Shown: positions 9,683-64,000 of the stretch, one piece after another
How positions within the stretch are numbered: the first letter of the stretch is position 1
Layout of the letters: every line of letters begins with the position of its first letter
Virus record (IMG/VR): IMGVR_UViG_3300016476_001169
Span: 32,001-96,000 of that record
Source: a virus
DNA: 64,000 bases
Strand: one strand, 5' to 3'
Translations under genes and position numbers: made by a program
Notes under the pieces: model-generated
Told to the model about the DNA's origin: nothing
Databases searched by the model: none
The model's input: only the letters and a program-made list of their open reading frames with translations

Positions 9683-9961
9683 TTGAAAAAACAAAGACTG
9701 ATTGAATTACAGAGCAAAGCTGAAGAAGGAAACTCAGAACTCAAAGATAGCATTGAAATCTTAGCAGAATTTTTTGTTTCACAAAGTCAGCATAATAAAG
9801 AATTGAAGAATGAAATTTTAGAATTAAATTCTAAGATAACAAGCTTAAACAGAAAGATTGATCAAATTTTAAAATTTACAACAACTGAACCCTTGGCTCA
9901 GATCTTGATTGAAAATTTAGAAGAGTTTGAAAAAAATCAAATTGAAGAAGATGATGAATAA
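9683..9961 (+). CDS. hypothetical coiled-coil protein
   Basis: 92-aa ORF with TTG start after AAGGA, followed by a terminator. Confidence 0.55.
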   Translation: MKKQRLIELQSKAEEGNSELKDSIEILAEFFVSQSQHNKELKNEILELNSKITSLNRKIDQILKFTTTEPLAQILIENLEEFEKNQIEEDDE

Positions 9962-9962
9962 T

Positions 9963-9994
9963 AATAAAAAGCTCCCTTTCGGGAGCTTTTTATT
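9963..9994. terminator. bidirectional intrinsic terminator
   Basis: AATAAAAAGCTCCC-TTTC-GGGAGCTTTTTATT between convergent genes. Confidence 0.9.
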
Positions 9995-10686
9995 TAGCTG
10001 AGATTATCTCCAAATTCCATTGGAGTATCAAACTCATTATCACAAACAAAGCATCCAAATCTTTCATGTGAAATCTGGTATGCATCAGACTTATTGCACC
10101 ATGGGCACTCTACTTTTTCAATAGAGCCAGAATCACTAAACCAAACTTTGCCAAGAACTTTAGTATTCTTAAGTTCGGGAACTTTATCTGTATCACTATT
10201 GAAATCAGAAGGAACCAAGATTTTCTTTCTCATACCTTCAACCGAAAGCTCGGCGTTTTCAACATCTTCGATAAGATCAATTTCTAATTCTTCTGCATTT
10301 AATCTTAACTGCTTTTCAAACTCATCTTCTTGAGCTTCTGCAAATTTGCCATAATTGCCTAAAATCTTCTCGACATCTGATTCTGGCACAAAGTGTGCTT
10401 TGCTAATACCTGCTCCAGGAACAGATTCATTATATTTGGCCAGCACCTTTCCAGATGTAGTATCAATAATACCCTCTGAAGTAATTGGGCCCACTTCTAA
10501 AATTGCAGTAGCAAGCCTTTTAGCCGCATAAATTGCCAAGTCTTCGTTTGGCATGACTCCCACATTGTCTTCAAAACCTTTAGCAATTTCTCTCAGACAA
10601 TCTTGTTCTTCTGGTGAAAAATGCTCAAAACTTTTAGTTAATGTGTCCCAAAAGATAACCTTACCGCGAGTTAAATTATAATCCAT
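9994..10686 (-). CDS. hypothetical protein with C-terminal zinc ribbon
   Basis: CPWC...CFVC; AGGAG SD upstream. Confidence 0.65.
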   Translation of the reverse strand: MDYNLTRGKVIFWDTLTKSFEHFSPEEQDCLREIAKGFEDNVGVMPNEDLAIYAAKRLATAILEVGPITSEGIIDTTSGKVLAKYNESVPGAGISKAHFVPESDVEKILGNYGKFAEAQEDEFEKQLRLNAEELEIDLIEDVENAELSVEGMRKKILVPSDFNSDTDKVPELKNTKVLGKVWFSDSGSIEKVECPWCNKSDAYQISHERFGCFVCDNEFDTPMEFGDNLS

Positions 10687-44439: not shown

Positions 44440-45756
44440 ATGTTTAAAACTTATAACTATCAAAATAGCCTTGTTAAACTTGCAGCTGTGGAAGACAAAA
44501 CAGCAATGGATTTAACACCTGAAATGATACAGGCAGTTAAAGAAGATTCTTCCATAACACACCCACTTGTAGAAGAAGCTAAAAAAGACTATATTGGTAA
44601 AGTTAAAGGCCTCGTACCCTCGCAAGATAAAGAAGCTATAGACCAAATCTGGAATGATTATTTAAGAACACTTAAATCACTCCCAAGAACTATCAACGAA
44701 GAATTCCCAGATTATCAAACATGGTTGCAAAATAATGAGGCCAACATAGTTAATTGGTACAATGAACACTTTATAACACCAAAAAATCAAAATCCGTTTC
44801 AAAAATCATTAGAAGAATCTGGATTAGATGTTAAAACCTATGTAGAAGAACACATCGCACCTGGAATCTACCAAAGAGAATTAACATTAGATAAATTCCA
44901 AAAATTCGGAATTAATCCACAAGTAGAAACAAATAATCCACTTATCAAATTCAATGCACTCATGGATAACTACTCAAGAGGAGTAGCTGAACACTTTACA
45001 CAACAATTAGATGAAATTGAACCAAGTAGTGGTAAAACTATTACATTTGTAACAGGGCATCCTGGTGCTGGTAAATCAACTATCCTAGAATTAGACAATT
45101 CTGATAAAGATGATCCGTTAAGAAAAACAAAATTTGGGACCCTTATTGATCCTGATGAATTTCAACCTTATTTGCCAGGCTTCAGTGGTGGAGCTAGATC
45201 AGGTGATGTTCTTATCTATGCAAAACAATTAATAGCAAAGAAATTACAAAATGAAGCTATGAATAGAGGACTAGACATAGCAATCCCATTAGTAGGTGGA
45301 CAAGCAAACATTCTTGCTAAAGACATAGCTGATGCACTATTGCAAGGCTATAATGTAAATGTAATACATAAAGAATTATCACAAGATGAAAGCCAACAAA
45401 GATCTACAAGTAGAGCAGAAGCTGGTGGTAGATTAATTGCACCTAATACAGGAACAACAAACCCGGCTGCAGCATACCAAGATTTACAAGAAGGCCCCGA
45501 AATTAAAAATAAAATCACCAGTATTCTTAAAGATAGAATTAAAGAAGAAAAGAAACTAGGTGAAATAAAAACAAGACTATTAACAGATGAAGAAATAGAG
45601 GCCCTGCTCAACAGAGTACATTTCTTTAATAGTGACCAAATTGTTACCTCGTCGGTAACTTTCGCGCGAAAAGCAATCAGAGTAGCAAAAACCCTCGAAT
45701 CCATAAGAGAATTCAAAGCAGTAGATACCATAATTAATTTACTAATAAAATTATAG
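44440..45756 (+). CDS. zeta-toxin-like P-loop kinase domain protein
   Basis: FVTGHPGAGKST, LIDPDEFQPYLP, GYNVNV, R...RAEAGGRLI. Confidence 0.7.
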   Translation: MFKTYNYQNSLVKLAAVEDKTAMDLTPEMIQAVKEDSSITHPLVEEAKKDYIGKVKGLVPSQDKEAIDQIWNDYLRTLKSLPRTINEEFPDYQTWLQNNEANIVNWYNEHFITPKNQNPFQKSLEESGLDVKTYVEEHIAPGIYQRELTLDKFQKFGINPQVETNNPLIKFNALMDNYSRGVAEHFTQQLDEIEPSSGKTITFVTGHPGAGKSTILELDNSDKDDPLRKTKFGTLIDPDEFQPYLPGFSGGARSGDVLIYAKQLIAKKLQNEAMNRGLDIAIPLVGGQANILAKDIADALLQGYNVNVIHKELSQDESQQRSTSRAEAGGRLIAPNTGTTNPAAAYQDLQEGPEIKNKITSILKDRIKEEKKLGEIKTRLLTDEEIEALLNRVHFFNSDQIVTSSVTFARKAIRVAKTLESIREFKAVDTIINLLIKL

Positions 45757-51931: not shown

Positions 51932-52012
51932 AAAATAAGGGCCCCTTCTTTTGTTAAGGTACTAATCCAAAGAATAGGGTACCTTAAATTTTACCCTCCC
52001 CCCCCCTGTTTT

Positions 52013-52068
52013 TGCGGTAAATTTTGCGGTAATTGCTGCGGTAAGTATTGCGGTAAATGTTGCGGTAA
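52013..52068 (+). repeat. five TGCGGTAA direct repeats at exact 12-bp period (iteron-like)
   Basis: copies start at 52013, 52025, 52037, 52049 and 52061. Confidence 0.9.
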
Positions 52069-52389
52069 ATTTAAAATAAATTGGGGCCCAAATTGTGATT
52101 TAAAATGGGAGTTTAAAAAATAAAAATAAGGGGCCACCGCGTTCGATGGGAGTCACAAAAAAATGGGGGTGAGGAAACCCCCTTCCTTATGGTACCTAAA
52201 TTAAGACATACCCCCCCCTGTTTTTCTATACAAAACGCTATAGTATGTAGTATGTATGCTTATACTTATAGTATTGTAATGTATTGTATGTATTAATGCT
52301 TTATGATGTATGATGTATTGATCTAATAGCGCATAGATCTATCTGCTGGGATTTTTATCTTAAAAGATTATAGTTTATTCTATAATAGT

Positions 52390-52638
52390 ATGAACTTCGA
52401 TTACCAAACCCTGACGACGATTCTGCTCACCGCTGTGCTTTGCTCCATCACTTTCTATGTGTTGATAGCGGGTTTCGATTGGAAACCAAAACACGCAGTA
52501 TTCGCTTCGCTCTTTGCACCAGCTGTCGTGCCAGTTTTCATGACCTGCCTTGCAATCTACATCATTGGCGACACGCTTCGTTCATTCTGCAACTATGCAA
52601 TCAATCTGGGTTCACCAAAGCAGGTTCGTCGGGCGTAG
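52390..52638 (+). CDS. array gene: two-TM membrane protein
   Basis: ATG fused to module; two hydrophobic helices. Confidence 0.7.
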   Translation: MNFDYQTLTTILLTAVLCSITFYVLIAGFDWKPKHAVFASLFAPAVVPVFMTCLAIYIIGDTLRSFCNYAINLGSPKQVRRA

Positions 52639-52724
52639 GGATTATACCATAATTTACACTTTGTAGATTATGGGCTAGGCCCCCTTTTTTATATTAAATT
52701 CTGCTTATTGGGTTCTATAATAGT

Positions 52725-52820
52725 ATGCAAAAACACTTTACCACCATCATTGATTCTGCTTTCCTTTTTGTTATGGTTTGTTGGATAGGTGCATTTATGG
52801 AGTGGGTATTATCATTATAA
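52725..52820 (+). CDS. array gene: 31-aa single-TM peptide
   Basis: MQKHFTTIIDSAFLFVMVCWIGAFMEWVLSL exactly fills the space between two modules. Confidence 0.6.
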   Translation: MQKHFTTIIDSAFLFVMVCWIGAFMEWVLSL

Positions 52821-52886
52821 CCCTTTGTGGGTTCTGGCTCATCGGGGGATTTTATCTTAAAACTTATTAATGGGTTCTATAATAGT

Positions 52887-53015
52887 ATGAGAATCAGCAA
52901 TCGTACAATCAACAATGGTCGCCAACTTGTTCTGCAGACTCGCCGGAACTGCTGGGTAGTCACTTTGCGTCCACATCGTCTGCTCTTTGCACATCGTTCC
53001 CAATCATCGTTCTAG
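52887..53015 (+). CDS. array gene: 42-aa basic peptide (family A)
   Basis: MRISNRTINNGRQLVLQTRRNCWVVTLRPHRLLFAHR; paralog at 53827. Confidence 0.7.
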   Translation: MRISNRTINNGRQLVLQTRRNCWVVTLRPHRLLFAHRSQSSF

Positions 53016-53053
53016 TTTTATCTTAAAAGATTATTGTAGGAGTCTATAATAGT

Positions 53054-53128
53054 ATGGAAATCATCATCGCAGACACTCTCGCCGTTGTTGTTCTTGTTTT
53101 CGGTCTTATCTTCGGTAAGTCCAAGTAA
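53054..53128 (+). CDS. array gene: 24-aa TM peptide (family B)
   Basis: MEIIIADTLAVVVLVFGLIFGKSK; paralog at 53753. Confidence 0.65.
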   Translation: MEIIIADTLAVVVLVFGLIFGKSK

Positions 53129-53164
53129 ACATCTTAAAAACTGAATATAGGATTCTATAATAGT

Positions 53165-53287
53165 ATGATTACAATCAATAAAGCATCTCATGGTGGTTAC
53201 AACGTTTCGCTCGATGGAACTTTTCTAGCATGGTTCCCAAAAATCAAAACCGCTCGCGACTTTGCGAAGGGTAGGCTTTTTCACTAA
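53165..53287 (+). CDS. array gene: 40-aa protein (family C)
   Basis: MITINKASHGGYNVSLDGTFLAWF; paralogs at 57231 and 58342. Confidence 0.7.
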   Translation: MITINKASHGGYNVSLDGTFLAWFPKIKTARDFAKGRLFH

Positions 53288-53289
53288 GC

Positions 53290-53352
53290 CTTTGTAGGCT
53301 TTGGGGCGTTGCTGGTTTTATCTTAAAAAGTGTTATTGGGTTCTATAATAGT
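53290..53352 (+). promoter_or_regulatory. representative full module (upstream arm + GC core + promoter-like element for a leaderless gene)
   Basis: CTTTGTAGGCTTTGG-GGCGTTGCTGG-TTTTATCTTAA-17 nt-TATAAT-AGT-ATG. Confidence 0.75.
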
Positions 53353-53682
53353 ATGAAAAACTTTGAAACTGTTGTGGTTCGTGGCATTGCCACTTTCAAC
53401 TTTGAACTGATGCTTGATTCTGATACTTTTGAGAATGTGTGCAATGAACTTGATTTGAATGCGGAAGATTATCGCACATTCACTGAAGAGCAATGGCTCA
53501 AGGTTCGTAAGAATCTCAAAGATACTACTTTTGACAACGAAGAACACATTGAAGTTGTAGATTTGTATGATGCTTCACGTATTTCAGTTGATGAAGTGAC
53601 TCTACAAACTGACTTTAATGACATTTCAGTTATCACTTATGAGATTGGTGATAAAGTTCATTCAATCGAACTAGATGTATAA
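53353..53682 (+). CDS. array gene: acidic hypothetical protein
   Basis: ATG fused to module. Confidence 0.75.
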   Translation: MKNFETVVVRGIATFNFELMLDSDTFENVCNELDLNAEDYRTFTEEQWLKVRKNLKDTTFDNEEHIEVVDLYDASRISVDEVTLQTDFNDISVITYEIGDKVHSIELDV

Positions 53683-53752
53683 AGTAACACTTTGTACATC
53701 TTGGGGCGGCCCCATTTTTATCTTAAAAGAAGAAAGTTTATTCTATAATAGT

Positions 53753-53827
53753 ATGGAAATCATTCTCTCAACCTTAGTTGTCGCCGCTGTTGTTGTTATC
53801 GTTCTTGGACTCATTGCGAGCAAGTAA
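53753..53827 (+). CDS. array gene: 24-aa TM peptide (family B)
   Basis: MEIILSTLVVAAVVVIVLGLIASK. Confidence 0.65.
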   Translation: MEIILSTLVVAAVVVIVLGLIASK

Positions 53828-53967
53828 TGAAACTGAGTCACCGCTTAATCAATAATGGGCGTCAGTTTATCTTTCAGAATCATACTGATTGCTGGGTTTT
53901 GACAATCAAGCCACACAGACTTTTAATAGCACATAGATTCCAGCCGCTTTGGACTTGGAATCATTAA
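53827..53967 (+). CDS. array gene: 46-aa basic peptide (family A), translationally coupled
   Basis: TAATG overlap; MKLSHRLINNGRQFIFQNHTDCWVLTIKPHRLLIAHR. Confidence 0.7.
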   Translation: MKLSHRLINNGRQFIFQNHTDCWVLTIKPHRLLIAHRFQPLWTWNH

Positions 53968-54033
53968 GTCTTTGTAGGCTTTGGGCTTAGGGGCGAAAAT
54001 ATCTTAAAAACAAAAGGGGGCTTCTATAATAGT

Positions 54034-54285
54034 ATGAACGAATATCCTGGTTACAAGAATCGCGCCACTTGGGTTGCAAGCGTCTGCCTCGGTGAATCAA
54101 TCAATCAACTTCGTGCTGATTATCCTGAGATGACAATCTTGGATGTAAAGACAGAATGTCTTGAGTTTCTACTCAATCATTCTAATCACAAGTTTGTCAA
54201 TCAGTTTCTCCATGTGGTTGCTGATGAGATTGATTGGGAGTTTCTCTACAATGACAATCTTAAAAGCCAACTTGCAAAGGTTTAA
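54034..54285 (+). CDS. array gene: YxGYxNxATW-family protein (family D)
   Basis: YPGYKNRATW; paralog at 58558. Confidence 0.75.
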   Translation: MNEYPGYKNRATWVASVCLGESINQLRADYPEMTILDVKTECLEFLLNHSNHKFVNQFLHVVADEIDWEFLYNDNLKSQLAKV

Positions 54286-54371
54286 GCCTTTGTAAGTTTT
54301 GGGGCAATGGGGGCCAGATCTTTGGCCCCCTTATTTTTATATTAAAAAATCATAATAAGTTCTATAATAGT

Positions 54372-54503
54372 ATGCAAGACACATTTAATGACAACTTCGA
54401 CATCGCCGCGCTCACCGTTGCTTTTGCCAACCAGGACACAGATTATGACGCACAACCTTTTCATCTTGATGTAGTTGATTACAACCATGCTTGCCGCTTT
54501 TAG
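54372..54503 (+). CDS. array gene: 43-aa acidic peptide
   Basis: MQDTFNDNFDIAALTVAF...; followed by hairpin CAACCATGC..GCATGGTTG. Confidence 0.55.
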   Translation: MQDTFNDNFDIAALTVAFANQDTDYDAQPFHLDVVDYNHACRF

Positions 54504-54585
54504 CGCGGCATGGTTGCAGGTTTAATTATGTTTTGATGTTAATAAATTTTTATCCTTAAAAATAAAAATGGGGCTCTATAGTATT

Positions 54586-54771
54586 ATGAACTTCGCAGAC
54601 TTTCTTTTGTCATCTGGCGTCAGTATTATTGACGGTGCATTCTCAGCTAATGGTATGAAGTATTTTTTCATCAACAATGATGTATTTAGAGTTAGTCAAA
54701 TCGGTTCTATTATTCGTGAGTTTAAAGTATCCCAATCAGAGATTAATGCAATCATTTTGTCTTTGAGATAA
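54586..54771 (+). CDS. array gene: hypothetical protein
   Basis: start reassigned to the ATG after a degenerate module (CTATAGTATT-ATG). Confidence 0.6.
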   Translation: MNFADFLLSSGVSIIDGAFSANGMKYFFINNDVFRVSQIGSIIREFKVSQSEINAIILSLR

Positions 54772-54836
54772 GTCTTTGTAGACTTTGGGGGCCTGGTGAT
54801 TTTATCTTAAAAACTATTATTGGATTCTATAATAGT

Positions 54837-55193
54837 ATGAATACTATTGGAAACTACAACCTAGAACACACCATTTACCGCTTCTTGCCAGTGACTCATG
54901 TCAAGTCCTTGGAGCGATTCCTTGAGCAGGGTATTCATCCCGGTGATTTCATGGCTCGTGTGCTTGAGAATAATCTTGTTGGTGCTGTTGCCAACGGAGA
55001 TGAAAACTCCAAGCAACATCTTTGCGACTTGGTTATGTTTATCCATAACCACTTGCCAGGTCGGTTCCTCAAGCCGGGTTGTGTCGATGATTTTATCAAT
55101 GGCACTGTCCGATACACTGTAACCGAGGGTGGTTACTGTGACTGGATTGAAACTGACCCTATCAAACAAAAGTATATTTCTGCAGAGAATTAA
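54837..55193 (+). CDS. array gene: hypothetical phage protein
   Basis: ATG fused to module; GIHPGDFM..VLENNL motif. Confidence 0.75.
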   Translation: MNTIGNYNLEHTIYRFLPVTHVKSLERFLEQGIHPGDFMARVLENNLVGAVANGDENSKQHLCDLVMFIHNHLPGRFLKPGCVDDFINGTVRYTVTEGGYCDWIETDPIKQKYISAEN

Positions 55194-55258
55194 ACCTTTG
55201 TAGATTTTGGGGTACCCCCGCTTTTGTCTTAAAAAGTGCTTTTGGATTCTATAGTAGT

Positions 55259-55540
55259 ATGGAAACTTCTGAAGACTTCAATGGCAACCCCGTATCTGGT
55301 TTGTATGCGAACATGAGCGATGCGCTTCATTTGGAGATATCAGCGATGTGCAAGCAGCATGGCTGGCGCTTATCAGTGACTCACGGTGACGAACACGCCG
55401 AGTATGGCTTCTGGACAGTTTGGAGTGATGAGTTTGGGCTGATATGCAACGAAGTCAGCAGGTCGCATTGTTATTACATCCTCAAGGGTGTCACCATAGG
55501 TTTGATGATGCACAAGGCAAAAGAAAACCAATTTGTGTAA
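55259..55540 (+). CDS. array gene: hypothetical protein
   Basis: ATG fused to module. Confidence 0.7.
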   Translation: METSEDFNGNPVSGLYANMSDALHLEISAMCKQHGWRLSVTHGDEHAEYGFWTVWSDEFGLICNEVSRSHCYYILKGVTIGLMMHKAKENQFV

Positions 55541-55612
55541 ACCTTTGTAGGTTTTGGGGTGTCGGGCCCCAAAAATTTTATCTTAAAATATCCTGCATGG
55601 TTCTATAATAGT

Positions 55613-55891
55613 ATGAAAACATTCATTATCAAAAACGTGCTGGTTGAGTCGAAGTTGCCCGGTCTGGGTTCTGTCAAGAGTAAGACTGTCAATACGATGG
55701 TTCCACCCTGTGATTGGGAGCAGTTGAATACTCACCTTTTTGAGATGTTCAAGGGGTTCCTTGAAAACTTTACTGATGTAAAGTTTGATTCTCTGGTGAT
55801 GTCTTTTGAGTATTCTGACTCTGAGACACCTGACTTGATTCATCAAGTCGACCATGGTTTTGATTCTGAAGGTGATATCTACTGTTGCTAG
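55613..55891 (+). CDS. array gene: hypothetical protein
   Basis: start reassigned to MKTFII directly after module. Confidence 0.7.
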   Translation: MKTFIIKNVLVESKLPGLGSVKSKTVNTMVPPCDWEQLNTHLFEMFKGFLENFTDVKFDSLVMSFEYSDSETPDLIHQVDHGFDSEGDIYCC

Positions 55892-55970
55892 GTATCACCT
55901 TTTAACCTTTTGTAGGTTTTGGGCCGCCCCCGCTTTTGTCTTAAAAAGTGCTATTGGATTCTATAGTAGT

Positions 55971-56207
55971 ATGAAAGACCTCATTTTCCAAGACGACATC
56001 TACTTCACCCTCACTGCCGAGCAAGCCGAATGGGCTGTCGCTTCGTGGACTAAGGTTCTCCTCCATCGGGGTATGATACCCGGTCGCATTCCTTCTGAGA
56101 GTGAAATCTCCCGATTCAAAACGGCGATTCCGGGAGTTCTCAACGGCTCCCCGCAGGAAGACCTCGGTTACATCCTGCATTCGGCTTCTAAGGTGCATTG
56201 GGATTAA
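55971..56207 (+). CDS. array gene: hypothetical protein
   Basis: start reassigned to MKDLIF. Confidence 0.7.
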   Translation: MKDLIFQDDIYFTLTAEQAEWAVASWTKVLLHRGMIPGRIPSESEISRFKTAIPGVLNGSPQEDLGYILHSASKVHWD

Positions 56208-56274
56208 CCCTTTGTAGACTTTGGCCTGTCGGGCGGGATCCATCTTAAAAAGGGGCATAGGATTCTATAATAGT

Positions 56275-56469
56275 ATGAAAAACTTTCCACTTATCACCAA
56301 GTACATTGATGAAATCGGCATTGACGTAAACCAGTCAGAACGCCTGTTTCTCAGCATTCTTGAAGACCGCCTTTCAGATGTTGAGAATGGCAGATGCACT
56401 GTTGATGATGCAGTGGGAGAAGCCTACGACTTCTACGCTGAGGCAATGAATAGTTGTGACGACTATTAG
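56275..56469 (+). CDS. array gene: acidic hypothetical protein
   Basis: start reassigned to MKNFPL. Confidence 0.7.
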   Translation: MKNFPLITKYIDEIGIDVNQSERLFLSILEDRLSDVENGRCTVDDAVGEAYDFYAEAMNSCDDY

Positions 56470-56535
56470 TCCTTTGTAGGCTTTGGGGGACTCCCGGGAT
56501 TTATCTTAAAAACTATTATTGGATTCTATAGTAGT

Positions 56536-56769
56536 ATGGAAACCTCTTCATTCACCTTCATCAACATCTGCGACCTCTCCCGCCAACTCATGCCGGAACA
56601 AAAAACCATTGCGGATTTTTACACCGCATACAACCTTGTGCAGGAGTGGGTCAAAAACAATGATGCCGTGATGTACGAGCATGAGAAGTACCACTTCTCA
56701 CGTTACGAGGCGATGGAACTCGCCACTGCGGCGGGTGTCAAAACAATCGTGGTACACGATTGTTCCTAA
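56536..56769 (+). CDS. array gene: hypothetical protein
   Basis: ATG fused to module. Confidence 0.7.
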   Translation: METSSFTFINICDLSRQLMPEQKTIADFYTAYNLVQEWVKNNDAVMYEHEKYHFSRYEAMELATAAGVKTIVVHDCS

Positions 56770-56904
56770 GACTTTGTAGGTTTTGGGGCGTCGCCTTTAC
56801 TAAATAAGCTAAAGAAAACATAATTTAGCAAAGGATTTAGTAAAGGATTTAGTAAAGGGCCCCCTATTTTTATCTTAAAACTTATTAAACTGTTCTATAA
56901 TAGT

Positions 56905-57159
56905 ATGAACTTTCACTCAATCAAATCAATCGTCGCCGCATCGGACATCGCCTTTTCGCTTGATACCTCGCTGGATGATTTTCTGAACGAATCTGACAAG
57001 TGGACTTTTGGAGACGCTCCTCATGTGCTTGTCAAGCCTTTTGTTTTTGAGCGGGCGTTTTATGACTACTTTGGCGACCAGGATGATGTTGTCGCAAAGT
57101 TCAAGCCGCTTTTCAATGAGATTTTGGAAGCCGAAGCCATGATTGATGTTGCACAATAG
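56905..57159 (+). CDS. array gene: acidic hypothetical protein
   Basis: ATG fused to module. Confidence 0.7.
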   Translation: MNFHSIKSIVAASDIAFSLDTSLDDFLNESDKWTFGDAPHVLVKPFVFERAFYDYFGDQDDVVAKFKPLFNEILEAEAMIDVAQ

Positions 57160-57230
57160 GCTTAAGCCTTTGTGCATTCTGGCCAGTCCCCGGTTTTATC
57201 TTAAAAAGTGTCATTGGGTTCTATAATAGT

Positions 57231-57368
57231 ATGAGTTATACAATCCAACAATGCAATACAGGTGGTTTCAACGTTCTTTGTGACGGTCAAGTTATCGGAT
57301 GGTGTCTCGCACCATGGCAATCACGAACTGTGATTAAAAAGCACATTGATGCTAATCCACTCCCTTAG
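57231..57368 (+). CDS. array gene: 45-aa protein (family C)
   Basis: MSYTIQQCNTGGFNVLCDGQVIGW. Confidence 0.7.
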   Translation: MSYTIQQCNTGGFNVLCDGQVIGWCLAPWQSRTVIKKHIDANPLP

Positions 57369-57409
57369 TTAGTTTTCTCTTAAATAACTTTATTGGAATC
57401 TATAATAGT

Positions 57410-57547
57410 ATGAACATTCAAGACATTATTGCCATCATCTTTTTTATACCTGTTGGTTTTGTGGCTATTACGTCAGCAGTATGTTTGCTTTGTATGCCTT
57501 TTCATTATCTTTCAGATTATATTCATTTAAGAAGTAAGACTTTGTAA
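57410..57547 (+). CDS. array gene: 45-aa TM peptide
   Basis: MNIQDIIAIIFFIPVGFVAITSAVCLLCMPF. Confidence 0.6.
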   Translation: MNIQDIIAIIFFIPVGFVAITSAVCLLCMPFHYLSDYIHLRSKTL

Positions 57548-57620
57548 ATTTTGGGGGCATGGGCGGTTTTATCTTAAATCATTGTTGTTAGGTTCTATAG
57601 TAGTATAAGAGGTGAAGCAA

Positions 57621-57851
57621 ATGACAGGACTTGAAGCACTGGATTTATTGAGAAAAGGTAATGTCAAAGTTAAGCGTTCTGAATGGCACAAGGATGAATA
57701 CTTGGAGACTTTTGATGGTAAAGATGTATATCCTTCCACAGAGTATGACCGCGAGCGTGGTGACAAATGCCATTATCCAAGTGATGCTCAAAGCTTAACA
57801 ATGAACATATTAGATGATTTTCTTAAAGATGACTGGGAGGTAGTAAAATGA
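57621..57851 (+). CDS. array gene: DUF2829/Tad2-like protein (leadered, has SD)
   Basis: MTGLEALDLLRKG..KVKRSEW...DFLKDDWEVV; module ends AGT-ATAAGAGGTG (SD) before the ATG. Confidence 0.65.
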   Translation: MTGLEALDLLRKGNVKVKRSEWHKDEYLETFDGKDVYPSTEYDRERGDKCHYPSDAQSLTMNILDDFLKDDWEVVK

Positions 57852-57932
57852 GAGGTACAAGGTTAACCCTTTGTACCTTTTGGCGTATCCCCGGTTTCTT
57901 CTTAAAAATCTGCCATTATGTTCTATAGTAGT

Positions 57933-58091
57933 ATGAAATCAATGACAATCACGAGGCGCGACATCGAGAAGGCGCGCAAAAACAACCCTTCTACCATTCC
58001 TGCATCTGAGCGTCCTTGGGCGCGCCCAACTGTATACAAGTCGGGGCGTGAATATCAACGCAACGCAAAGCATCGGAACCGAGAAGAATAA
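57933..58091 (+). CDS. array gene: 52-aa basic peptide with ArfA-like C-terminal motif
   Basis: ...RPTVYKSGREYQRNAKHR. Confidence 0.6.
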   Translation: MKSMTITRRDIEKARKNNPSTIPASERPWARPTVYKSGREYQRNAKHRNREE

Positions 58092-58156
58092 TACTTTGTA
58101 GGTTTTGAGGGGCCCCATTTTTTATCTTAAAAACTATTATTAGATTCTATAGTAGT

Positions 58157-58339
58157 ATGGAAAACAAAGTTGTCACGGACTGGAACGCAGTCGCCCCTTC
58201 TGCTCATGGTACTCTTGTTGGTCTCAAGTTGATTCTTACGGGACTTGAGAATCATGATTATCCTGTGAATGTTCTCAAAAAAGTGCTGGAAGGTTATGAA
58301 AAGCAGATTGCAGAATACCTTGCAGAAAAGAAAGATTAA
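58157..58339 (+). CDS. array gene: hypothetical protein
   Basis: ATG fused to module. Confidence 0.7.
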   Translation: MENKVVTDWNAVAPSAHGTLVGLKLILTGLENHDYPVNVLKKVLEGYEKQIAEYLAEKKD

Positions 58340-58341
58340 TC

Positions 58342-58491
58342 ATGGAAGATTTTAATGTAGAAATCCGACCTTCCGCCCGTGGTGGTTGGAATCTTTATAT
58401 CGATGGTGATTTTTGTGGCTATGACAAGTCCAAGAAAGTTCTAAAAGAACTTGCACAAGAAATGATTAAGAATGAGCATGGACTTTATTAA
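58342..58491 (+). CDS. array gene: 49-aa protein (family C), second gene of its cassette
   Basis: MEDFNVEIRPSARGGWNLYIDGDFCGY. Confidence 0.65.
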   Translation: MEDFNVEIRPSARGGWNLYIDGDFCGYDKSKKVLKELAQEMIKNEHGLY

Positions 58492-58557
58492 GTCTTTGTA
58501 AATTCTGGCCCGCAGGGCGGTTTTATCTTAAAACCTATTATTGGATTCTATAATAGT

Positions 58558-58788
58558 ATGAATAATGCAACCTATAACGGCTATGCCAACTACGCTACTT
58601 GGAACGTCTCAGCATACATTACCAATGACGAAGGTTTGTATAACTTGGTAAAGCGTTATGACACTTGGGATAAGTGTAAAGAAGCGTTGATTATGTGTGG
58701 TGTAACCCAAACCTGTGATGACATCTCTTTTGATGACCCAGATTTGGACACAAACGAACTTGATGAGATGCTGGCAGAACTTTCATAA
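58558..58788 (+). CDS. array gene: YNGYxNYATW-family protein (family D)
   Basis: YNGYANYATWNV...NDEGLY. Confidence 0.75.
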   Translation: MNNATYNGYANYATWNVSAYITNDEGLYNLVKRYDTWDKCKEALIMCGVTQTCDDISFDDPDLDTNELDEMLAELS

Positions 58789-58871
58789 GTTGCCAGCATT
58801 TTTTAGGCTTTGTAAATTCTGACCCACTGGGCGGTTTTATCTTAAAAAAGATTATTATTCCCTATAATAGT

Positions 58872-59243
58872 ATGAATACTGCAATGAAAATCCAAATCCA
58901 TCCAAACGCTTGTGCTAACTACATCGCCCGTTGCTACCGTCACAATCGTCATTCGCAGAATATGCTTCACAATGCGGCTTTTGCTGATAAACTTCGCAAG
59001 GTTCAGGGTCAATGGTTGGAAGTTGACACCGAGCATCTTTTCGCAGACCAGTTTAATACTGTGCCTATTGAAGGTGTAACAGAGAATGGATTGCGTGTAA
59101 TGCAGTCAGATGTTGTTTCAATCGTTAATGATGTGCGTAATAATGTCGTAAAGTGTCAATGGTGCTACGGTTACGACAAAGATAATGATGGAAAGTGCGA
59201 TAAATGCGGAAAAGATGACTATTTATCGCCTTTAATGCCATAA
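58872..59243 (+). CDS. array gene: protein with C-terminal zinc ribbon
   Basis: CQWC...CDKC. Confidence 0.75.
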   Translation: MNTAMKIQIHPNACANYIARCYRHNRHSQNMLHNAAFADKLRKVQGQWLEVDTEHLFADQFNTVPIEGVTENGLRVMQSDVVSIVNDVRNNVVKCQWCYGYDKDNDGKCDKCGKDDYLSPLMP

Positions 59244-59315
59244 ATTAACACTTTGTGGCTTCTGACCCGCTGGGCGATTTTATCTTAAAAAGATTCTACT
59301 GCATTCTATAATAGT

Positions 59316-59555
59316 ATGAAAAGAATGACCATTGCCGAAGCGAAGCGTATCTGTTTGGAGCGAGATGGCTCCCTGCCGAGAATCGGCTACTCCCGTGACG
59401 TTGTGACTCGCGAAGAGCAGGTCGAAGTCACCAACTATTGTGAAGGTCCAAAGTTTTATCGGACTACCACAAAAGTCAACTATACACTCGTCAACGCAGG
59501 TGGTACTTTCAAAGTGCAAAAGTACACTCACCCTTCAGTTCCTCCACGGTATTAA
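59316..59555 (+). CDS. array gene: hypothetical protein
   Basis: ATG fused to module. Confidence 0.7.
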   Translation: MKRMTIAEAKRICLERDGSLPRIGYSRDVVTREEQVEVTNYCEGPKFYRTTTKVNYTLVNAGGTFKVQKYTHPSVPPRY

Positions 59556-59621
59556 TACTTTGTGGATTCTGGGACATCCCCCGGTTTTATCTTAAAAAGT
59601 ATTATTGGGTTCTATAATAGT

Positions 59622-60023
59622 ATGAACGAAATCTTTATTCTCCAGTCCTCCGAAGTCGATTCCCTTGGTGCTTGCTCCTACGGCACCCTCCGCTCTGTTG
59701 ACCTGTTGCCACGCTTGGCTAACTATCTCAGCATTGCCCTTGACACAATCGAGGTTCGCTTTGAGAATGCTGGTCAGGCTCTCAAAGACTTTGAGCAAGG
59801 TTTTGTTGCAGAATACCGCCACATTGTGGCAGATGCCGTTGAGTTTCACGAACTCAATGCAGATGAATACGGTAGTGCATACCCTGAATCTGCCGAGATG
59901 GATGCACAAGAGATTATTGTGTCATTGTTTGACGCTTTAGACCAACTTTCGCCTGATGGTCAATACTTTGGCTCACATCCCGGCGATGGTAGCGACTTTG
60001 GCTACTGGGAGAATGAGTTTTAA
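59622..60023 (+). CDS. array gene: acidic protein (GTLR..DL / YFGSHPGDGSDFGYW motif)
   Basis: start reassigned to MNEIFI. Confidence 0.75.
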   Translation: MNEIFILQSSEVDSLGACSYGTLRSVDLLPRLANYLSIALDTIEVRFENAGQALKDFEQGFVAEYRHIVADAVEFHELNADEYGSAYPESAEMDAQEIIVSLFDALDQLSPDGQYFGSHPGDGSDFGYWENEF

Positions 60024-60171
60024 TGTTAAATAACATAATAATGTGCACTATTATGTTATTATTCATCGCTTTTTACATCTATCTAGGTTTTATTATTAAA
60101 TATAAGACTTTGTAGATGTTGGCCAGGCCCCAATTTTTATCTTAAATATTATTATCGCATTCTATAATAGT

Positions 60172-60354
60172 ATGAATAATCCTAACATTCCTAAGTGTCC
60201 TGACCGTGTACCATTTAAGTCTCAAGGCGATTACGCCAATGTTCGTCCTACTAGGTTCAAGCCTGCTCCAGATGGTGATTGGGATGACGACCTCGACCCT
60301 GAAGATAGGGCTCGCATGATGGGTCGTGATTTCATGGGTCCAAGATGGCGATAA
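60172..60354 (+). CDS. array gene: hypothetical protein
   Basis: ATG fused to module. Confidence 0.65.
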   Translation: MNNPNIPKCPDRVPFKSQGDYANVRPTRFKPAPDGDWDDDLDPEDRARMMGRDFMGPRWR

Positions 60355-60402
60355 ACATCTTAAAATAACTTATTTATTTCTATACTAGTAAGGAAGAAAA
60401 CT

Positions 60403-60681
60403 ATGTACATTACCAACATCTTTGCAGACATCGACGACTTATCAACTGGTTATTCCGCTTTTGTATCTTATGGATTAGAAGAAGATGATGATTTGGACTT
60501 TATTGGTATCTATCCTCTTAATAGACTGATTGGAAATAATAGTTTTGACAGCGAAGAATCGCTTAAAAGTGCGATTAAGAATGCTTTAGTTAGCACTTAT
60601 CCAAATAAAAAGATTACTTTTGATTATTATTTCCAATATGAAAGTAATGAAGTAATTAAGCGATACAATGAATCTGCATAA
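60403..60681 (+). CDS. array gene: hypothetical protein (leadered, has SD)
   Basis: module ends TATACTAGT-AAGGAAG (SD) before the ATG. Confidence 0.7.
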   Translation: MYITNIFADIDDLSTGYSAFVSYGLEEDDDLDFIGIYPLNRLIGNNSFDSEESLKSAIKNALVSTYPNKKITFDYYFQYESNEVIKRYNESA

Positions 60682-60730
60682 GTTATGCAGATTTTTGGCG
60701 ATGGGCCAAAAACTACAAAGGTTTATTTTG

Positions 60731-60812
60731 TGGTAGTAGCAAGAGGAGGCCTCGAACCTGCCGTCTCCCGTTCCGGAACGCTTGTTTTATCCAAATAAAC
60801 TATCTTGCTACT
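60731..60812 (-). ncRNA. tRNA-like element with extended acceptor stem, encoded CCA and aberrant anticodon arm
   Basis: AGTAGCAAGA/TCTTGCTACT + A-CCA; D arm GTTT-ATTTGGATA-AAAC; T arm GCAGG-TTCGAGG-CCTCC (one mismatch); anticodon region CGTTCCGGAACG cannot form a 5-bp stem with a 7-nt loop. Confidence 0.65.
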
Positions 60813-60819
60813 ACTACTT

Positions 60820-60977
60820 ATATGCCTTGACATAACTGTTTGCGTCAGTCCCTGCCAAGGACAGTAAGAACTTGTGGCTTTTTGACCACCCCAAGGTTGC
60901 TACCCTTATTTGAATCTCGCAATAGATTCTAGCCGTTCTGGATTCTTACTGGCTGAGGTTGTTCGAATCAACCTCAT
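60820..60977 (-). ncRNA. candidate structured RNA transcribed from an array module, contiguous with the tRNA-like element
   Basis: stems TGAGGTTG/CAACCTCA, CAGTAAGAA/TTCTTACTG enclosing three hairpins, CCTTGGCA/TGTCAAGG; only a 23-codon ORF (60906-60977). Confidence 0.5.
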
Positions 60978-61047
60978 ACTATTATAGAGCATTATTGTGG
61001 TTTTTAAGATAAATTTTTGGGGGACTGGAGCCAAAAGTTACAAAGGA

Positions 61048-61374
61048 TTAAATCCTTTGTTTTACATTGGCATCTTTATCTTCCCAATTAAAGAAAAGAA
61101 AAGCAAAGAATGCAAGTGCATATAAAACCAATGCAGAGCCGAATGAAAAGTTCAAAAGATTCATTGCTATTGGTGCTTTATCATTACCAGTAATAATCCA
61201 CTCAATCCAACCGCCAATAATTCCAATTACTGGAGTGGCAATCAAAGCAATCGTGCCAAGTTTAACAAGATACTTGCCTAAAAATTTCATTACACCAATA
61301 GCAACAGCAACAATAAGAGTAAACAAGCCGATGTAAACAAGTGACTGAAGCAGTCGGGCAGTAATTTCGTTCAT
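61048..61374 (-). CDS. array gene: three-TM membrane protein
   Basis: start reassigned to MNEITA. Confidence 0.7.
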   Translation of the reverse strand: MNEITARLLQSLVYIGLFTLIVAVAIGVMKFLGKYLVKLGTIALIATPVIGIIGGWIEWIITGNDKAPIAMNLLNFSFGSALVLYALAFFAFLFFNWEDKDANVKQRI

Positions 61375-61486
61375 ACTATTATAGAATCCAATCAATCAAT
61401 TTAAGATAAAAATGGGGGCTACTCCCCAAAGGCTACAAAGGACTAATAATCGTCACCACCATAGTAACCATTCACGATTTTGCATT

Positions 61487-61810
61487 TTAAAATTCCCCAT
61501 ACTCAGATAGGATTTTGTTTTTGATTCTAGATGGTAGTTCAACATTTTTGGCTAAACCCATCAAGATTTGTTTTGGTTGCAATAGAGATTTACGTTTTTC
61601 TTGGTTGACTTTCCATTCATAAACAACCAAACACCATTCCCCATCCCATCCATGTTCGTGCTTAATAAAATATGTTTCTCCATCAACAGAAGGAAAAACA
61701 CCATCAACAAAAATCTCCGTATCCATAGGTTTAAAGAAATCTGTGTTATAAAAAATTTCTCTACCTGAATTGGTTTTCAGATTATAAATCCAATACTTTG
61801 GTTTTTGCAT
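61487..61810 (-). CDS. array gene: hypothetical protein
   Basis: start reassigned to MQKPKY. Confidence 0.7.
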   Translation of the reverse strand: MQKPKYWIYNLKTNSGREIFYNTDFFKPMDTEIFVDGVFPSVDGETYFIKHEHGWDGEWCLVVYEWKVNQEKRKSLLQPKQILMGLAKNVELPSRIKNKILSEYGEF

Positions 61811-61879
61811 ACTATTATAGAATCCAATCAATCAGTTTAAGATAAATTTTTGGCCAGAGGCCCCAAAATCTACAAAGGA

Positions 61880-62188
61880 CTAATAATCGTCACCGCCATA
61901 GTAACCGTAGTCCTCGTCACAGCCATATCCAGCTGAAGCAAGAGCATCTGCATCATCGCTCATGTCGTGGCAATTATAAGGAAAACAGTACTCTTCAGGG
62001 TCAGGCTCTGCAAGCACATCATAAGTGGCTATGCACTCGCCGTCGTGGTCAACGGTGTATATTTCACCCGGACCAAATCTACCCTCGCTGTCGTTTACAG
62101 CGATGTCTATCATCACACGAGAAAGAATCGTGCAAATGTCCGAAGCGGAAGCACTGGAAGGGACGCTGAAGTTGATGTTGATTTCCAT
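61880..62188 (-). CDS. array gene: acidic protein ending DADALASAGYGCDEDYGYYGGDDY
   Basis: start reassigned to MEININ. Confidence 0.75.
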   Translation of the reverse strand: MEININFSVPSSASASDICTILSRVMIDIAVNDSEGRFGPGEIYTVDHDGECIATYDVLAEPDPEEYCFPYNCHDMSDDADALASAGYGCDEDYGYYGGDDY

Positions 62189-62254
62189 ACTAGTATAGAA
62201 CATTATGGTATTTTTTAAGATAAAACCGGGGACAGGGCCAAAACCTACAAAGTG

Positions 62255-62596
62255 CTAATCTTCGAGGTCTGGATTGACTTGAATCCTAGTTTTACTAAGG
62301 ACTTCTGCCATTTTGTAGCATTCTACAAGATATTCATGCACAGTTCGTGCAATGTAAAGCGGGTGAATCGACGCACCTATGTTTTTGGCTGGCATTGAAA
62401 AAACTATTTCTGTTTTGCCATCTGCAAATGACACAATGTCAGCAAGTAGGTCAATGTCTTTGTAGTCACGATAAATAATATCAATGACACCAAAGTCATG
62501 GGTAGCACGATAGATGATTTCTTTTGATTTCTCAAGAAGAATGTTTTGGATAAAATCATCAACGGATACTGCGAAGATTGCTCTAGATGTTGTCAT
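62255..62596 (-). CDS. array gene: hypothetical protein
   Basis: ATG fused to module. Confidence 0.7.
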   Translation of the reverse strand: MTTSRAIFAVSVDDFIQNILLEKSKEIIYRATHDFGVIDIIYRDYKDIDLLADIVSFADGKTEIVFSMPAKNIGASIHPLYIARTVHEYLVECYKMAEVLSKTRIQVNPDLED

Positions 62597-62679
62597 ACTA
62601 CTATAGAATCCAATAATACTTTTTAAGATAAAAGCGGGGGTGCCCCAAAATTTACAAAGGATTAAATTCCTTTGTAAAT

Positions 62680-62967
62680 TTAATAATCATCATCCCAACG
62701 CTCGCCAGCATCTGATTCATCAAACCAATCAGGGGCAACGCTGGACAGATTTACAGGGTGATAACTGCTCCCGCAGTCATTGAACGACGCTTGGGGGTAA
62801 GCGGCTTTTGCTTCCTCAAGAGTATCAAACTCATCGAGCCAAATCCTGCAAGTCTGACCTGCAAGAACTGACGATTCGGAATAAACACCGTACTCATACA
62901 CGCCATACGTTTCATTGCAATAGGTTGCGCCAGCAGATGGATACTCTATTCTAAACTCTGTTTTCAT
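62680..62967 (-). CDS. array gene: acidic hypothetical protein
   Basis: ATG fused to module; SSVLAGQ...PDWFDESDAGERWDDDY. Confidence 0.75.
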   Translation of the reverse strand: MKTEFRIEYPSAGATYCNETYGVYEYGVYSESSVLAGQTCRIWLDEFDTLEEAKAAYPQASFNDCGSSYHPVNLSSVAPDWFDESDAGERWDDDY

Positions 62968-63034
62968 ACTACTATAGAATCTTGTATCTACTTTTTAAGA
63001 TAAACCCGGGCAGTGCACCAAAGTTTACAAAGCC

Positions 63035-63472
63035 TTAAGTCGGTACACTATTGTAAACCTTAAGTGTAAAAATACCTAAACTATTAAACATATCAATACA
63101 GTCATCTCTATCTTCAATAGCATACACAGGAATGTAGTCATGGCATTTCATTTCTTCTATTAAATCGCTTTTAACCATAGGTGATTTACGGTAATCATTC
63201 TTATTTCGCATAAATAGAGCATCATAATCAATGTTATTATCTTCTAACCATTTAGTTGTGAGTTCTCTATTAGATTCTGGGCGGGCTGTTAGAATAATAA
63301 TCATGTACTTTTCTTTAAGCATGTTAATAAGTTCTCTAACAGGTTCAACAACTAAATCTTCATTGCAGTTATTAAAAAATGATTGCCAATCTTTTTTCTT
63401 TGATTCTATGAAATGTAATCGGTGATTACAATCAGCTAAGGTTCCATCTAAATCTACGATTACACTATCCAT
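63035..63472 (-). CDS. array gene: HAD phosphatase, PNK 3'-phosphatase-like (paralog of 43933..44385)
   Basis: MDSVIVDLDGTLADCNHRLH, LTARPE, IEDR; start reassigned. Confidence 0.85.
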   Translation of the reverse strand: MDSVIVDLDGTLADCNHRLHFIESKKKDWQSFFNNCNEDLVVEPVRELINMLKEKYMIIILTARPESNRELTTKWLEDNNIDYDALFMRNKNDYRKSPMVKSDLIEEMKCHDYIPVYAIEDRDDCIDMFNSLGIFTLKVYNSVPT

Positions 63473-63546
63473 ACTAATATAGAGCCCCTTTTTTATTTTT
63501 ATGATATTTATTGACACGAGCCAGAACCTACAAAGAGTAAATCTTT

Positions 63547-63879
63547 CTAGGGAACCTTGCTGGTGTGGCATAGGAGAACATTACCAACAATCGGGCGACC
63601 TGCCAACTCGGTTGCCTCAATGTTGAGGGTTGGATTATTCCAAAGACCCTCTTCGTCACATACAAGAATGTATTCTGTATCTGGAACATCAACCAACTCA
63701 ATGGAATCACAGCCGATTGCATTGTAGAGTCCTGAGAGACCAAACACCATGTCGCCATCATGCTCGACAGCAGGTGGAACAACATTGACTACATCGTAGC
63801 CACCTGTAGGGGTGATAAGTACACCGACACCGCTATCGACGATTTTCTTGACTGAAGGTTGAAGAGTGATTGTATTCAT
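63547..63879 (-). CDS. array gene: DUF3846-like protein
   Basis: LYNAIGCDSIELV...CDEEG...NIEAT...IVGNVLL. Confidence 0.7.
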   Translation of the reverse strand: MNTITLQPSVKKIVDSGVGVLITPTGGYDVVNVVPPAVEHDGDMVFGLSGLYNAIGCDSIELVDVPDTEYILVCDEEGLWNNPTLNIEATELAGRPIVGNVLLCHTSKVP

Positions 63880-64000
63880 ACTATTATAGAAGCCCCCTTT
63901 TATTTTTAAGATGTTTCGACCAGATCACCCACCTTCTACAAACCCTTATTTGTTGGGATTGAGAAGATGACAAAAGGTGTTACTATAAAAATGCCAAGTC

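Follow-up and report, generated by a model that had tools for sequence, protein, structure and literature searches.

The window, i.e., the whole stretch of 64,000 nucleotides analyzed here, corresponds to bases 32001–96000 of a 104,191-bp contig from IMG/VR (IMGVR_UViG_3300016476_001169), which belongs to a large, uncultured freshwater phage. From position 52352 onwards, it carries an array of small genes, nearly all preceded by a copy of the same module of about 65 bases, which reaches from the stop codon of one gene to the start codon of the next. In relatives, the genes of the array occur in scrambled order, and the breakpoints are enriched in the module.

The module array and its genes

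The window was searched with the 14-nt module core TCTATARTAGTATG, allowing up to two mismatches. This yielded 38 matches, 36 of them at 52379–63890, as compared to 1.0 on average and at most 4 in shuffled sequences. Thus, the array of at least 36 repeated modules at small genes, which an earlier note had described from the letters of the stretch, was recovered. The whole-genome scan proposed there returned 47–50 core copies, all at genome positions 84.3–104.0 kb and up to the contig end; genome positions 1–84 kb were free of array copies, and the full 5' and middle boxes occurred nowhere else in the contig. The location given before (52352–63945) was correct, but the extent and the single orientation were not, since the array continues to the contig end and its last eight copies in the window are inverted: copies 1–28 (52379–60392) lie on the plus strand and copies 29–36 (60975–63890) on the minus strand. 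The two opposed arms converge at about 60.7–61.0 kb. The features of the array are the following:

52010–52318, no strand assigned: left border of the array with five tandem 12-nt repeats and short 5–9-nt repeats; the first module lacks the 5' box
52352–60695, plus strand: plus arm, 28 modules, each followed by an open reading frame (ORF) of 24–133 amino acids (aa), with few second ORFs lacking a module of their own
53285–53355, plus strand: canonical module with TAA at 53285–53287, 5' box from 53290, GC core, T-run, promoter-like boxes and ATG at 53353
57535–57623, plus strand: variant module with ATA for the fused ATG and a Shine-Dalgarno (SD) sequence directly after it; gene start at 57621
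60360–60405, plus strand: variant module without 5' box and with AAG for ATG, before the SD-led gene 60403–60681; last unit of the plus arm
60731–60977, minus strand: last unit of the minus arm, at the arm convergence; module before a probable structured RNA with a tRNA-like end
60975–63945, minus strand: minus arm, eight modules in the window; extends to the contig end (genome 104036)
61424–61469, minus strand: orphan copy of the 5' box together with the final 27 nt of the coding end of the neighboring gene (61861–61906); 93% identity over 46 nt

A metagenome scan with the promoter part of the module returned 120 further stretches (L017–L136), many with 5–29 copies. Together with the contig, these gave a set of 879 modules, 596 of which have the 5' box, and a logo was built from 212 distinct canonical modules. 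In the 5' half of the logo, the stop codon is followed by one free base and the 5' box CCTTTGTAGGTTYTGG; the GC-rich core comes next, about 12 nt long and with TC at its center, and then a T-run. The 3' half consists of TCTTAAAAA, six free bases, an A, five semi-conserved bases and ATTCTATARTAGT, directly followed by the ATG; an SD sequence is absent from the logo. Of the 596 modules with a 5' box, 320 have a distance of 64 nt and 92 one of 63 nt from CTTTGT to the ATG, in agreement with the spacing of 63–64 bp reported before. The gap between the two promoter-like boxes measures 15 nt in 718 of all 879 modules and 14 nt in a further 152. The upstream stop codon is fixed at positions −5 to −3 from CTTTGT (T 0.99, A 0.92, A/G 1.0) and is TAA or TAG in 92% of the logo modules, so that the module indeed starts a few bases past the previous stop. 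The R of TATART is G in 75% of the population modules and mostly A in the contig, which gives TATAAT. The exact module pattern was found in no other IMG/VR contig, and distant relatives were without the module sequence, with matches at control level. A literature search with the motif strings returned unrelated papers only.

The ORFs set by the module ATG have a median length of 73 aa. Differences from relatives fell on codon positions 1, 2 and 3 in 1682, 1017 and 4361 cases (311, 147 and 596 for ORFs of up to 50 aa). This bias identifies the array ORFs as real genes, and the cargo consists mostly of orphan genes under purifying selection. For 18 of the 20 cargo proteins of the window that were tested, no Pfam family scored over threshold, and PHROGs added families of unknown function only. 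The other two are:

63035–63472, minus strand: 145-aa protein with HAD/PNKP-type phosphatase domain (PF25109, 1.2e-23)
63547–63879, minus strand: 110-aa DUF3846 protein (4.1e-10)

Larger module-driven genes at the contig end and in relatives encode an ATP-dependent DNA ligase, UvdE, an Ogg-like glycosylase, an RNase T-like exonuclease, DUF7227/GP88 and DUF2786. Several of the 24-aa products are hydrophobic, as the earlier note had remarked for small peptides; its description of the cargo as anti-defence-like effectors found no support.

The unit at the arm convergence (60731–60977) probably makes a structured RNA, as no convincing protein is encoded. Rfam gave a weak tRNA match at 60737–60809 (28.5 bits; threshold 29), and ARAGORN detected no tRNA in the window, including this RNA. 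The piece is 98–99% identical in relatives, where the neighboring cassettes show 75–90% identity, and it had the top summed contig depth in all four runs compared. At the left border, the 12-nt unit TTTTGCGGTAAA is repeated five times. The repeats occupy 52010–52072 and 52241–52318, with a two-way terminator-like hairpin at 52165–52182 between the two blocks, and they could form a protein-binding or border region of the array. At two gene ends of the minus arm, inverted pairs of the 5' box (61040–61060 and about 62650–62680) form hairpins with 9-bp stems. These pairs may be relics of exchange between oppositely oriented modules.

Gene order in relatives and probable exchange within the module

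At 78 loci, sequences matched the array at 68–100% DNA identity. In relatives at 70–90% identity, 224 of the 299 consecutive match pairs in the array were rearranged, corresponding to about 112 distinct junctions, and 75 were colinear. Breakpoint ends lay inside the module in 48% of cases (16% expected) and within 20 nt of it in 78% (25% expected). Thus, gene order and content, the comparison on which the earlier note had rested its idea of shuffling, were not identical among relatives, and the breakpoints were enriched in the module. When the upstream gene families seen at least three times were considered, 27 of 60 had more than one downstream partner, and more than one upstream partner was found for 40 of 57 downstream gene families. 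In long loci, the shared gene order was scrambled, and genes of both arms were interleaved in one orientation; in L024, all 29 modules were on one strand. The gene at 54034–54285 of the plus arm was found among minus-arm genes in L079, L112 and L047. One cassette family is present in both arms, with 52- and 53-aa paralogues at window positions 57933–58091 (plus strand) and genome positions 98980–99140 (minus strand).

Such scrambling could also arise if the modules were strong promoters kept alike by selection and generic recombination left only breakpoints between genes to survive, without any special role of the module. Purifying selection on the cargo would fit this explanation. In addition, nearly all intergenic DNA is module, so the breakpoint enrichment partly reflects the survival of intact genes and cannot separate the two readings, which weighs against exchange within the module as the preferred one. 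However, at junctions between families that are not adjacent in the contig, the module length of 62–65 nt was kept in 86%, which would not be the case for illegitimate joins. In L133 and L132, the same genes flank the module on both sides and the cores differ, i.e., exchange took place between modules. Moreover, in L109 the 6.5 kb to the left of the array are colinear with the contig, and the order scrambles from the start of the array. Selection acting on promoters without a special role of the module is therefore a rather improbable explanation.

The three variable segments of the module are linked in part to the gene upstream and in part to the gene downstream. Their mean identities were 0.62–0.78, as compared to 0.5 for the background and 0.83 for the same junction. 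The crossover patterns imply exchange in each conserved block together with patchy conversions. A single crossover site was considered and rejected, since the linkage of segments to genes was mixed. Kept junction length, swapped cores and segment mosaics together argue for exchange within the module, and the proposal of the earlier note that the module provides recombination homology was supported by novel junctions of kept length and by mosaic modules.

About two thirds of the words of the stretch were present in contigs of freshwater, drinking-water and plastic-biofilm samples (17 runs, 11 studies). Near-identical strains elsewhere join module to module at 59264->54800 (with a new core, in two studies), 63912->62234, 62667->58145 and 60023->62228. 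Joints that go back in position were also seen in contigs of other samples and are compatible with circles or rearranged genomes alike. The 46-nt direct repeat created by the orphan copy at 61424–61469 looks like a scar left when a cassette was inserted or exchanged.

The contig encodes a terminase, a tail fibre, a DnaE-type polymerase, a ribonucleotide reductase and a RecJ-like exonuclease, as well as a RecA-like protein (PF00154, 3.9e-29) and an SbcC/Rad50-like ATPase. A tyrosine recombinase (PF00589) was found neither in the contig nor in the complete 441-kb relative, with the control being positive in 14 of 14 genomes. The search for a recombinase, sigma factor or activator suggested in the earlier note was thus successful in part: RecA-like, RecJ-like and SbcC-like proteins and sigma-family ORFs were present, and neither an integrase nor other dedicated plug-in machinery was found. 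A dedicated integron-like system, in which the 5' box and the stop codon would be the site of a site-specific recombinase acting through circles and at one defined crossover point, would account for the invariance of the 5' box and its fixed distance to stop and promoter, which are unexplained by folding. It would also suit single cassettes that switch arm and orientation with kept polarity, and the inverted box pairs at 61040–61060 and near 62650–62680. However, crossover intervals fall in all of the conserved blocks and conversions are patchy, the recombinase was not found in the contig or the 441-kb relative, and this relative has the same architecture without such a 5' box. Such a system is hence very unlikely. 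Since no tyrosine recombinase was found, RecA-type homologous recombination with gene conversion is the most economical mechanism.

With the repeats, their fixed geometry, the coding cargo, the scrambled order, the length-keeping breakpoints in the module and the mosaic modules observed, the array is best read as a set of self-contained expression cassettes that are shuffled by homologous exchange in the shared module; the probability of this reading is put at about 0.72. According to this proposal, each unit would be a self-contained expression cassette, and the roughly 50 near-identical tandem modules in two opposed arms would offer short homology to the RecA-type recombination of the phage. 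Crossovers in register and gene-conversion patches in any conserved box could then delete, insert, replace, reorder or move single genes, with the polarity from module to gene always being kept. Movement between the arms may use excised circles or inversions.

As regards the origin of the contig, a near-identity DNA search of GenBank phages gave no match, and no cultured phage is close. The nearest terminases (44–54% identity) are encoded on contigs of 177, 441 and 479 kb, which places the phage in a lineage of very large phages. A host could not be assigned from a scan of bacterial genomes, which gave nine single matches, three of which look real; binning was too unreliable to name a host. 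The module-bearing contigs in metagenome-assembled genomes (MAGs) are probably mis-binned phage and at best a weak host hint:

L138, 3.6 kb, binned as Flavobacteriaceae: real or diverged modules in a MAG contig, six diverged modules
L139, 866 bp: module-bearing contig from the bacterial-genome scan
L144, 22 kb, binned as Armatimonadota: module-bearing MAG contig

In the non-array part of the window, positions 44440–45756 (plus strand) encode a 438-aa protein with a zeta-toxin-type kinase domain (PF06414, 2.6e-11).

The two halves of the module

The 3' half has the form of a promoter, with two conserved boxes at fixed spacing, the second being TATAAT-like, and 17 nt between CTTAAA and TATART. 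The ATG directly follows the promoter box in 722 of the 879 modules, and 157 are variants. In the SD-led variants, AGGAG, GAGGT, GGGAG or AAGGA begins exactly at the would-be ATG position. The first base of this position is a purine in 876 of the 879 modules. In the relatives L053, L067, L074, L105, L115, L027 and L049, tRNA genes lie 5–12 nt downstream of a module. Because the same module precedes SD-led genes, tRNA genes and the RNA at 60977, the 3' half is more than a translation signal, and this supports the view of the earlier note that the module supplies a promoter, which would drive the tRNA genes of relatives as well. It is proposed to be a two-part promoter, with TCTTAAAAA, a gap of 14–15 nt and TTCTATARTAGT fused to the ATG. 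In L053, L074 and L105, a small GC hairpin lies within about 30 nt downstream of some modules and leads directly into the middle box of a further module; this arrangement would correspond to tandem promoters or very short transcription units.

Array genes lack SD sequences, and other genes of the contig have them in about half of the cases. Since an SD sequence must be part of the RNA, transcription in the SD-led variants has to start at or before the base at the ATG position. Therefore, the 722 units with fused ATG most likely yield mRNAs that are leaderless or have leaders of up to 5 nt. In the proposed mechanism, transcription would start at the A of the ATG or no more than about 5 nt upstream of it, and most mRNAs would be leaderless.

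A similar geometry was found in the distant relative G003, a complete IMG/VR contig of 441,498 bp (L146–L168). It contains 114 units of TCCCCAA, 12 nt and AGGTATACT, i.e., a sequence different from that of the present module. On one strand, 107 units are located, and 105 lie in the last 100 kb (about 342–441.5 kb). The ATG is found exactly 6 nt past the hexamer in 82 of the 114 units, which is the canonical leaderless geometry. ORFs led by the units have a median length of 97 aa, and the first box often directly follows the stop codon of the gene before it. This box lies 34 nt from the ATG in G003, as compared to 33 nt for the upstream box of the present module; thus, the start point relative to the upstream box is conserved and the sequence is not. 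When measured from the upstream box and the ATG, the G003 hexamer aligns with TTCTAT/TCTATA of the present module, and the conspicuous TATAAT may be 2–3 nt out of register with the element that is really recognized. A counterpart of the 5' half was not found in the G003 units, and the G003 motif was absent from the other relatives tested. Some copies have a CCCC...GGGG hairpin between the two boxes.

Two candidate sigma factors of the phage are encoded outside the window, at about 9854–10447 and about 12936–13650 of the genome, with domains in the following ORFs:

G000:C1:9887-10036, minus strand: small ORF with sigma-70 region 4 domain (43 bits)
G000:C1:13392-13547, minus strand: small ORF with sigma-70 region 2 domain (38 bits)

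A zinc-finger sigma-like ORF (genome 20005–20991) was rejected, as it had no Pfam or PHROG match and the sigma domains sit in other ORFs. Complete relatives also have sigma-70-family ORFs and gave no match to a beta-like subunit of RNA polymerase. From these two findings, it is suggested that the core polymerase comes from the host and the sigma factor from either host or phage, and the reader of the module would be the multisubunit RNA polymerase of the host. Alternatively, the promoter would not be of the host sigma-70 early type but would be read by a phage sigma factor or an unseen phage polymerase, as a middle or virion-factor-dependent class. For a promoter, the sequence is very rich in information, the −35 box and the distance from hexamer to ATG are non-canonical, each lineage has its own consensus, and the contig has the two sigma-family ORFs. 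CTATAG plus purine, moreover, resembles the start region of single-subunit polymerase promoters. However, the 17 nt between CTTAAA and TATART are the sigma-70 optimum, and a beta-like subunit was not found in the complete relatives. The search for a T7-like polymerase (PF00940) gave no match either, but the control was also silent, so this result is uninformative. A different reader is thus conceivable, though the less probable case, and it would alter the reader only and leave the cassette architecture unaffected. Two other readings were discarded: a Bacteroidota-type promoter in the 5' box (TTTG / TAnnTTTG), as the spacing does not fit, and an archaeal TATA box, as the phage encodes bacterial-type sigma factors, DnaE and RecA.

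The 5' half, in the proposed mechanism, would close the preceding gene by its fixed stop codon, the box CCTTTGTAGGTTYTGG, the GC-rich core and the T-run. A short GC hairpin before the T-run (TTYTGG, core and following bases) is possible in about half of the modules. A terminator scan of 52–64 kb gave 23 sites, as compared to 9.0 ± 3.1 expected, about eight of them inside modules. Of the 3' boundary claimed in the earlier note, the built-in stop codon was retained, and the terminator role received weak support. Tentatively, the 5' half may be taken for a leaky terminator of low strength or for an insulator, and it may contain a binding site for a factor.

Several further points speak against the cassette reading as set out here. 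Only 3 nt separate the TATAAT-like hexamer from the ATG; if TATART were read in the canonical sigma-70 manner, the start would fall 6–7 nt downstream, just past the ATG. The −35-like hexamer agrees with TTGACA at no more than 3 of 6 positions. For the 5' half, hairpin folding reached a mean z-score of −1.3, with 42% of modules at −5 kcal/mol, and a fixed hairpin of the GC core was rejected, as there was no covariation in a fixed register. Terminator or hairpin functions leave the invariant 15-nt 5' box and the fixed stop codon unexplained. Contigs of RNA run X20 and of two doubtful RNA runs cover several cassettes and in places cross a module, but these runs exist as contigs only, from which transcript starts, transcript ends and expression are not readable. 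Finally, the contig represents about 29% of a genome (CheckV completeness), so gene absences prove little. For the cassettes, we infer the activities as promoter and terminator, the point where transcription starts, expression at an early time and the pathway of recombination.

It is a speculative and unlikely possibility that the 5' box with the stop codon is the recognition site of a phage factor for termination, processing or recombination, with transcription by a phage sigma factor starting about 4 nt after the hexamer, and that the array belongs to a lineage-wide leaderless cassette system of jumbo phages for the exchange of accessory banks of 20–100 kb.

Comparison with known systems

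The closest known elements are the PeSLs (promoter-early stem-loop elements) of T4-like phages, which consist of a stem-loop and a sigma-70-like early promoter and end in an SD sequence and a start codon (Arbiol et al. 2010, PMC2839356; Comeau et al. 2014, PMC4122927). PeSLs cluster before ORFans in hyperplastic regions, and closely related phages differ by indels or replacements associated with them; recombination at several positions inside the element yields mini-circles (PMC2839356, PMC4122927). As in these elements, small ORFans are preceded here by short composite units between the genes, which would combine a terminator-like part with a promoter of early type, and the indels, replacements and displacements that distinguish relatives break within the unit. 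Crossover is not confined to one place in it, the consensus differs from one phage lineage to the next, and the units cluster in a variable ORFan-rich region (genome 84.3–104.0 kb; median ORF of 73 aa). In contrast to PeSLs, the present module has no SD sequence and fuses the ATG to the promoter (722 of 879 modules), includes the upstream stop codon at a fixed distance, and shows an invariant 15-nt box where PeSLs have a clear stem-loop. The units are also far denser, with about 50 in succession here and 114 in the relative, they form two opposed arms with exchange between them, and the carrier is not T4-like, since it has a DnaE-type polymerase and relatives of 441–479 kb.

Integron arrays likewise consist of tandem single-gene cassettes of one polarity with a repeated boundary element and a content that varies among relatives. 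However, every present cassette has a promoter-like element, an IntI-type recombinase (PF00589) was not found in this contig of about 29% of a genome, and the boundary is conserved in sequence and not in fold, with no pairing covariation and with crossovers spread over the module. In the host-takeover and early regions of phages (the terminal-redundancy module of SPO1, the pre-early region of T5 and the early promoters of T4), small early genes of unknown function are clustered, and all or nearly all of them have a strong consensus promoter and often a terminator. In contrast to the present array, the leaders of these early genes are ordinary and contain ribosome-binding sites, the units are far less numerous, and a fixed module from stop to start is absent. 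Leaderless transcription programmes of phages (Thermus phages) are described as common in PMC5312081, with reference to earlier work. The present units resemble them in having a putative −10 element directly upstream of the start codon and no ribosome-binding site, and differ in that only 3 nt separate the TATAAT-like hexamer from the ATG and in that the unit as a whole is repeated and serves as a substrate for recombination.

Thus, the system is not an integron but an extreme and most likely leaderless form of the shuffling cassettes with promoter and terminator known as PeSLs. The principle is already published for PeSLs; new are the hard-wired, probably leaderless design, the scale, the presence in a jumbo-phage lineage and the record of natural junctions. 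Modular shuffling mediated by promoter/terminator units is hence not confined to T4-like phages, and unrelated very large freshwater phages use it at much larger scale (about 50 units here; 114 in the relative). The more than 100 distinct natural junctions represent a data set on how short homologies drive the turnover of accessory genes in phages. In addition, the unit would be a compact natural part of the type 'one promoter, one leaderless gene', and its 3-nt geometry between hexamer and ATG bears on the selection of transcription starts.

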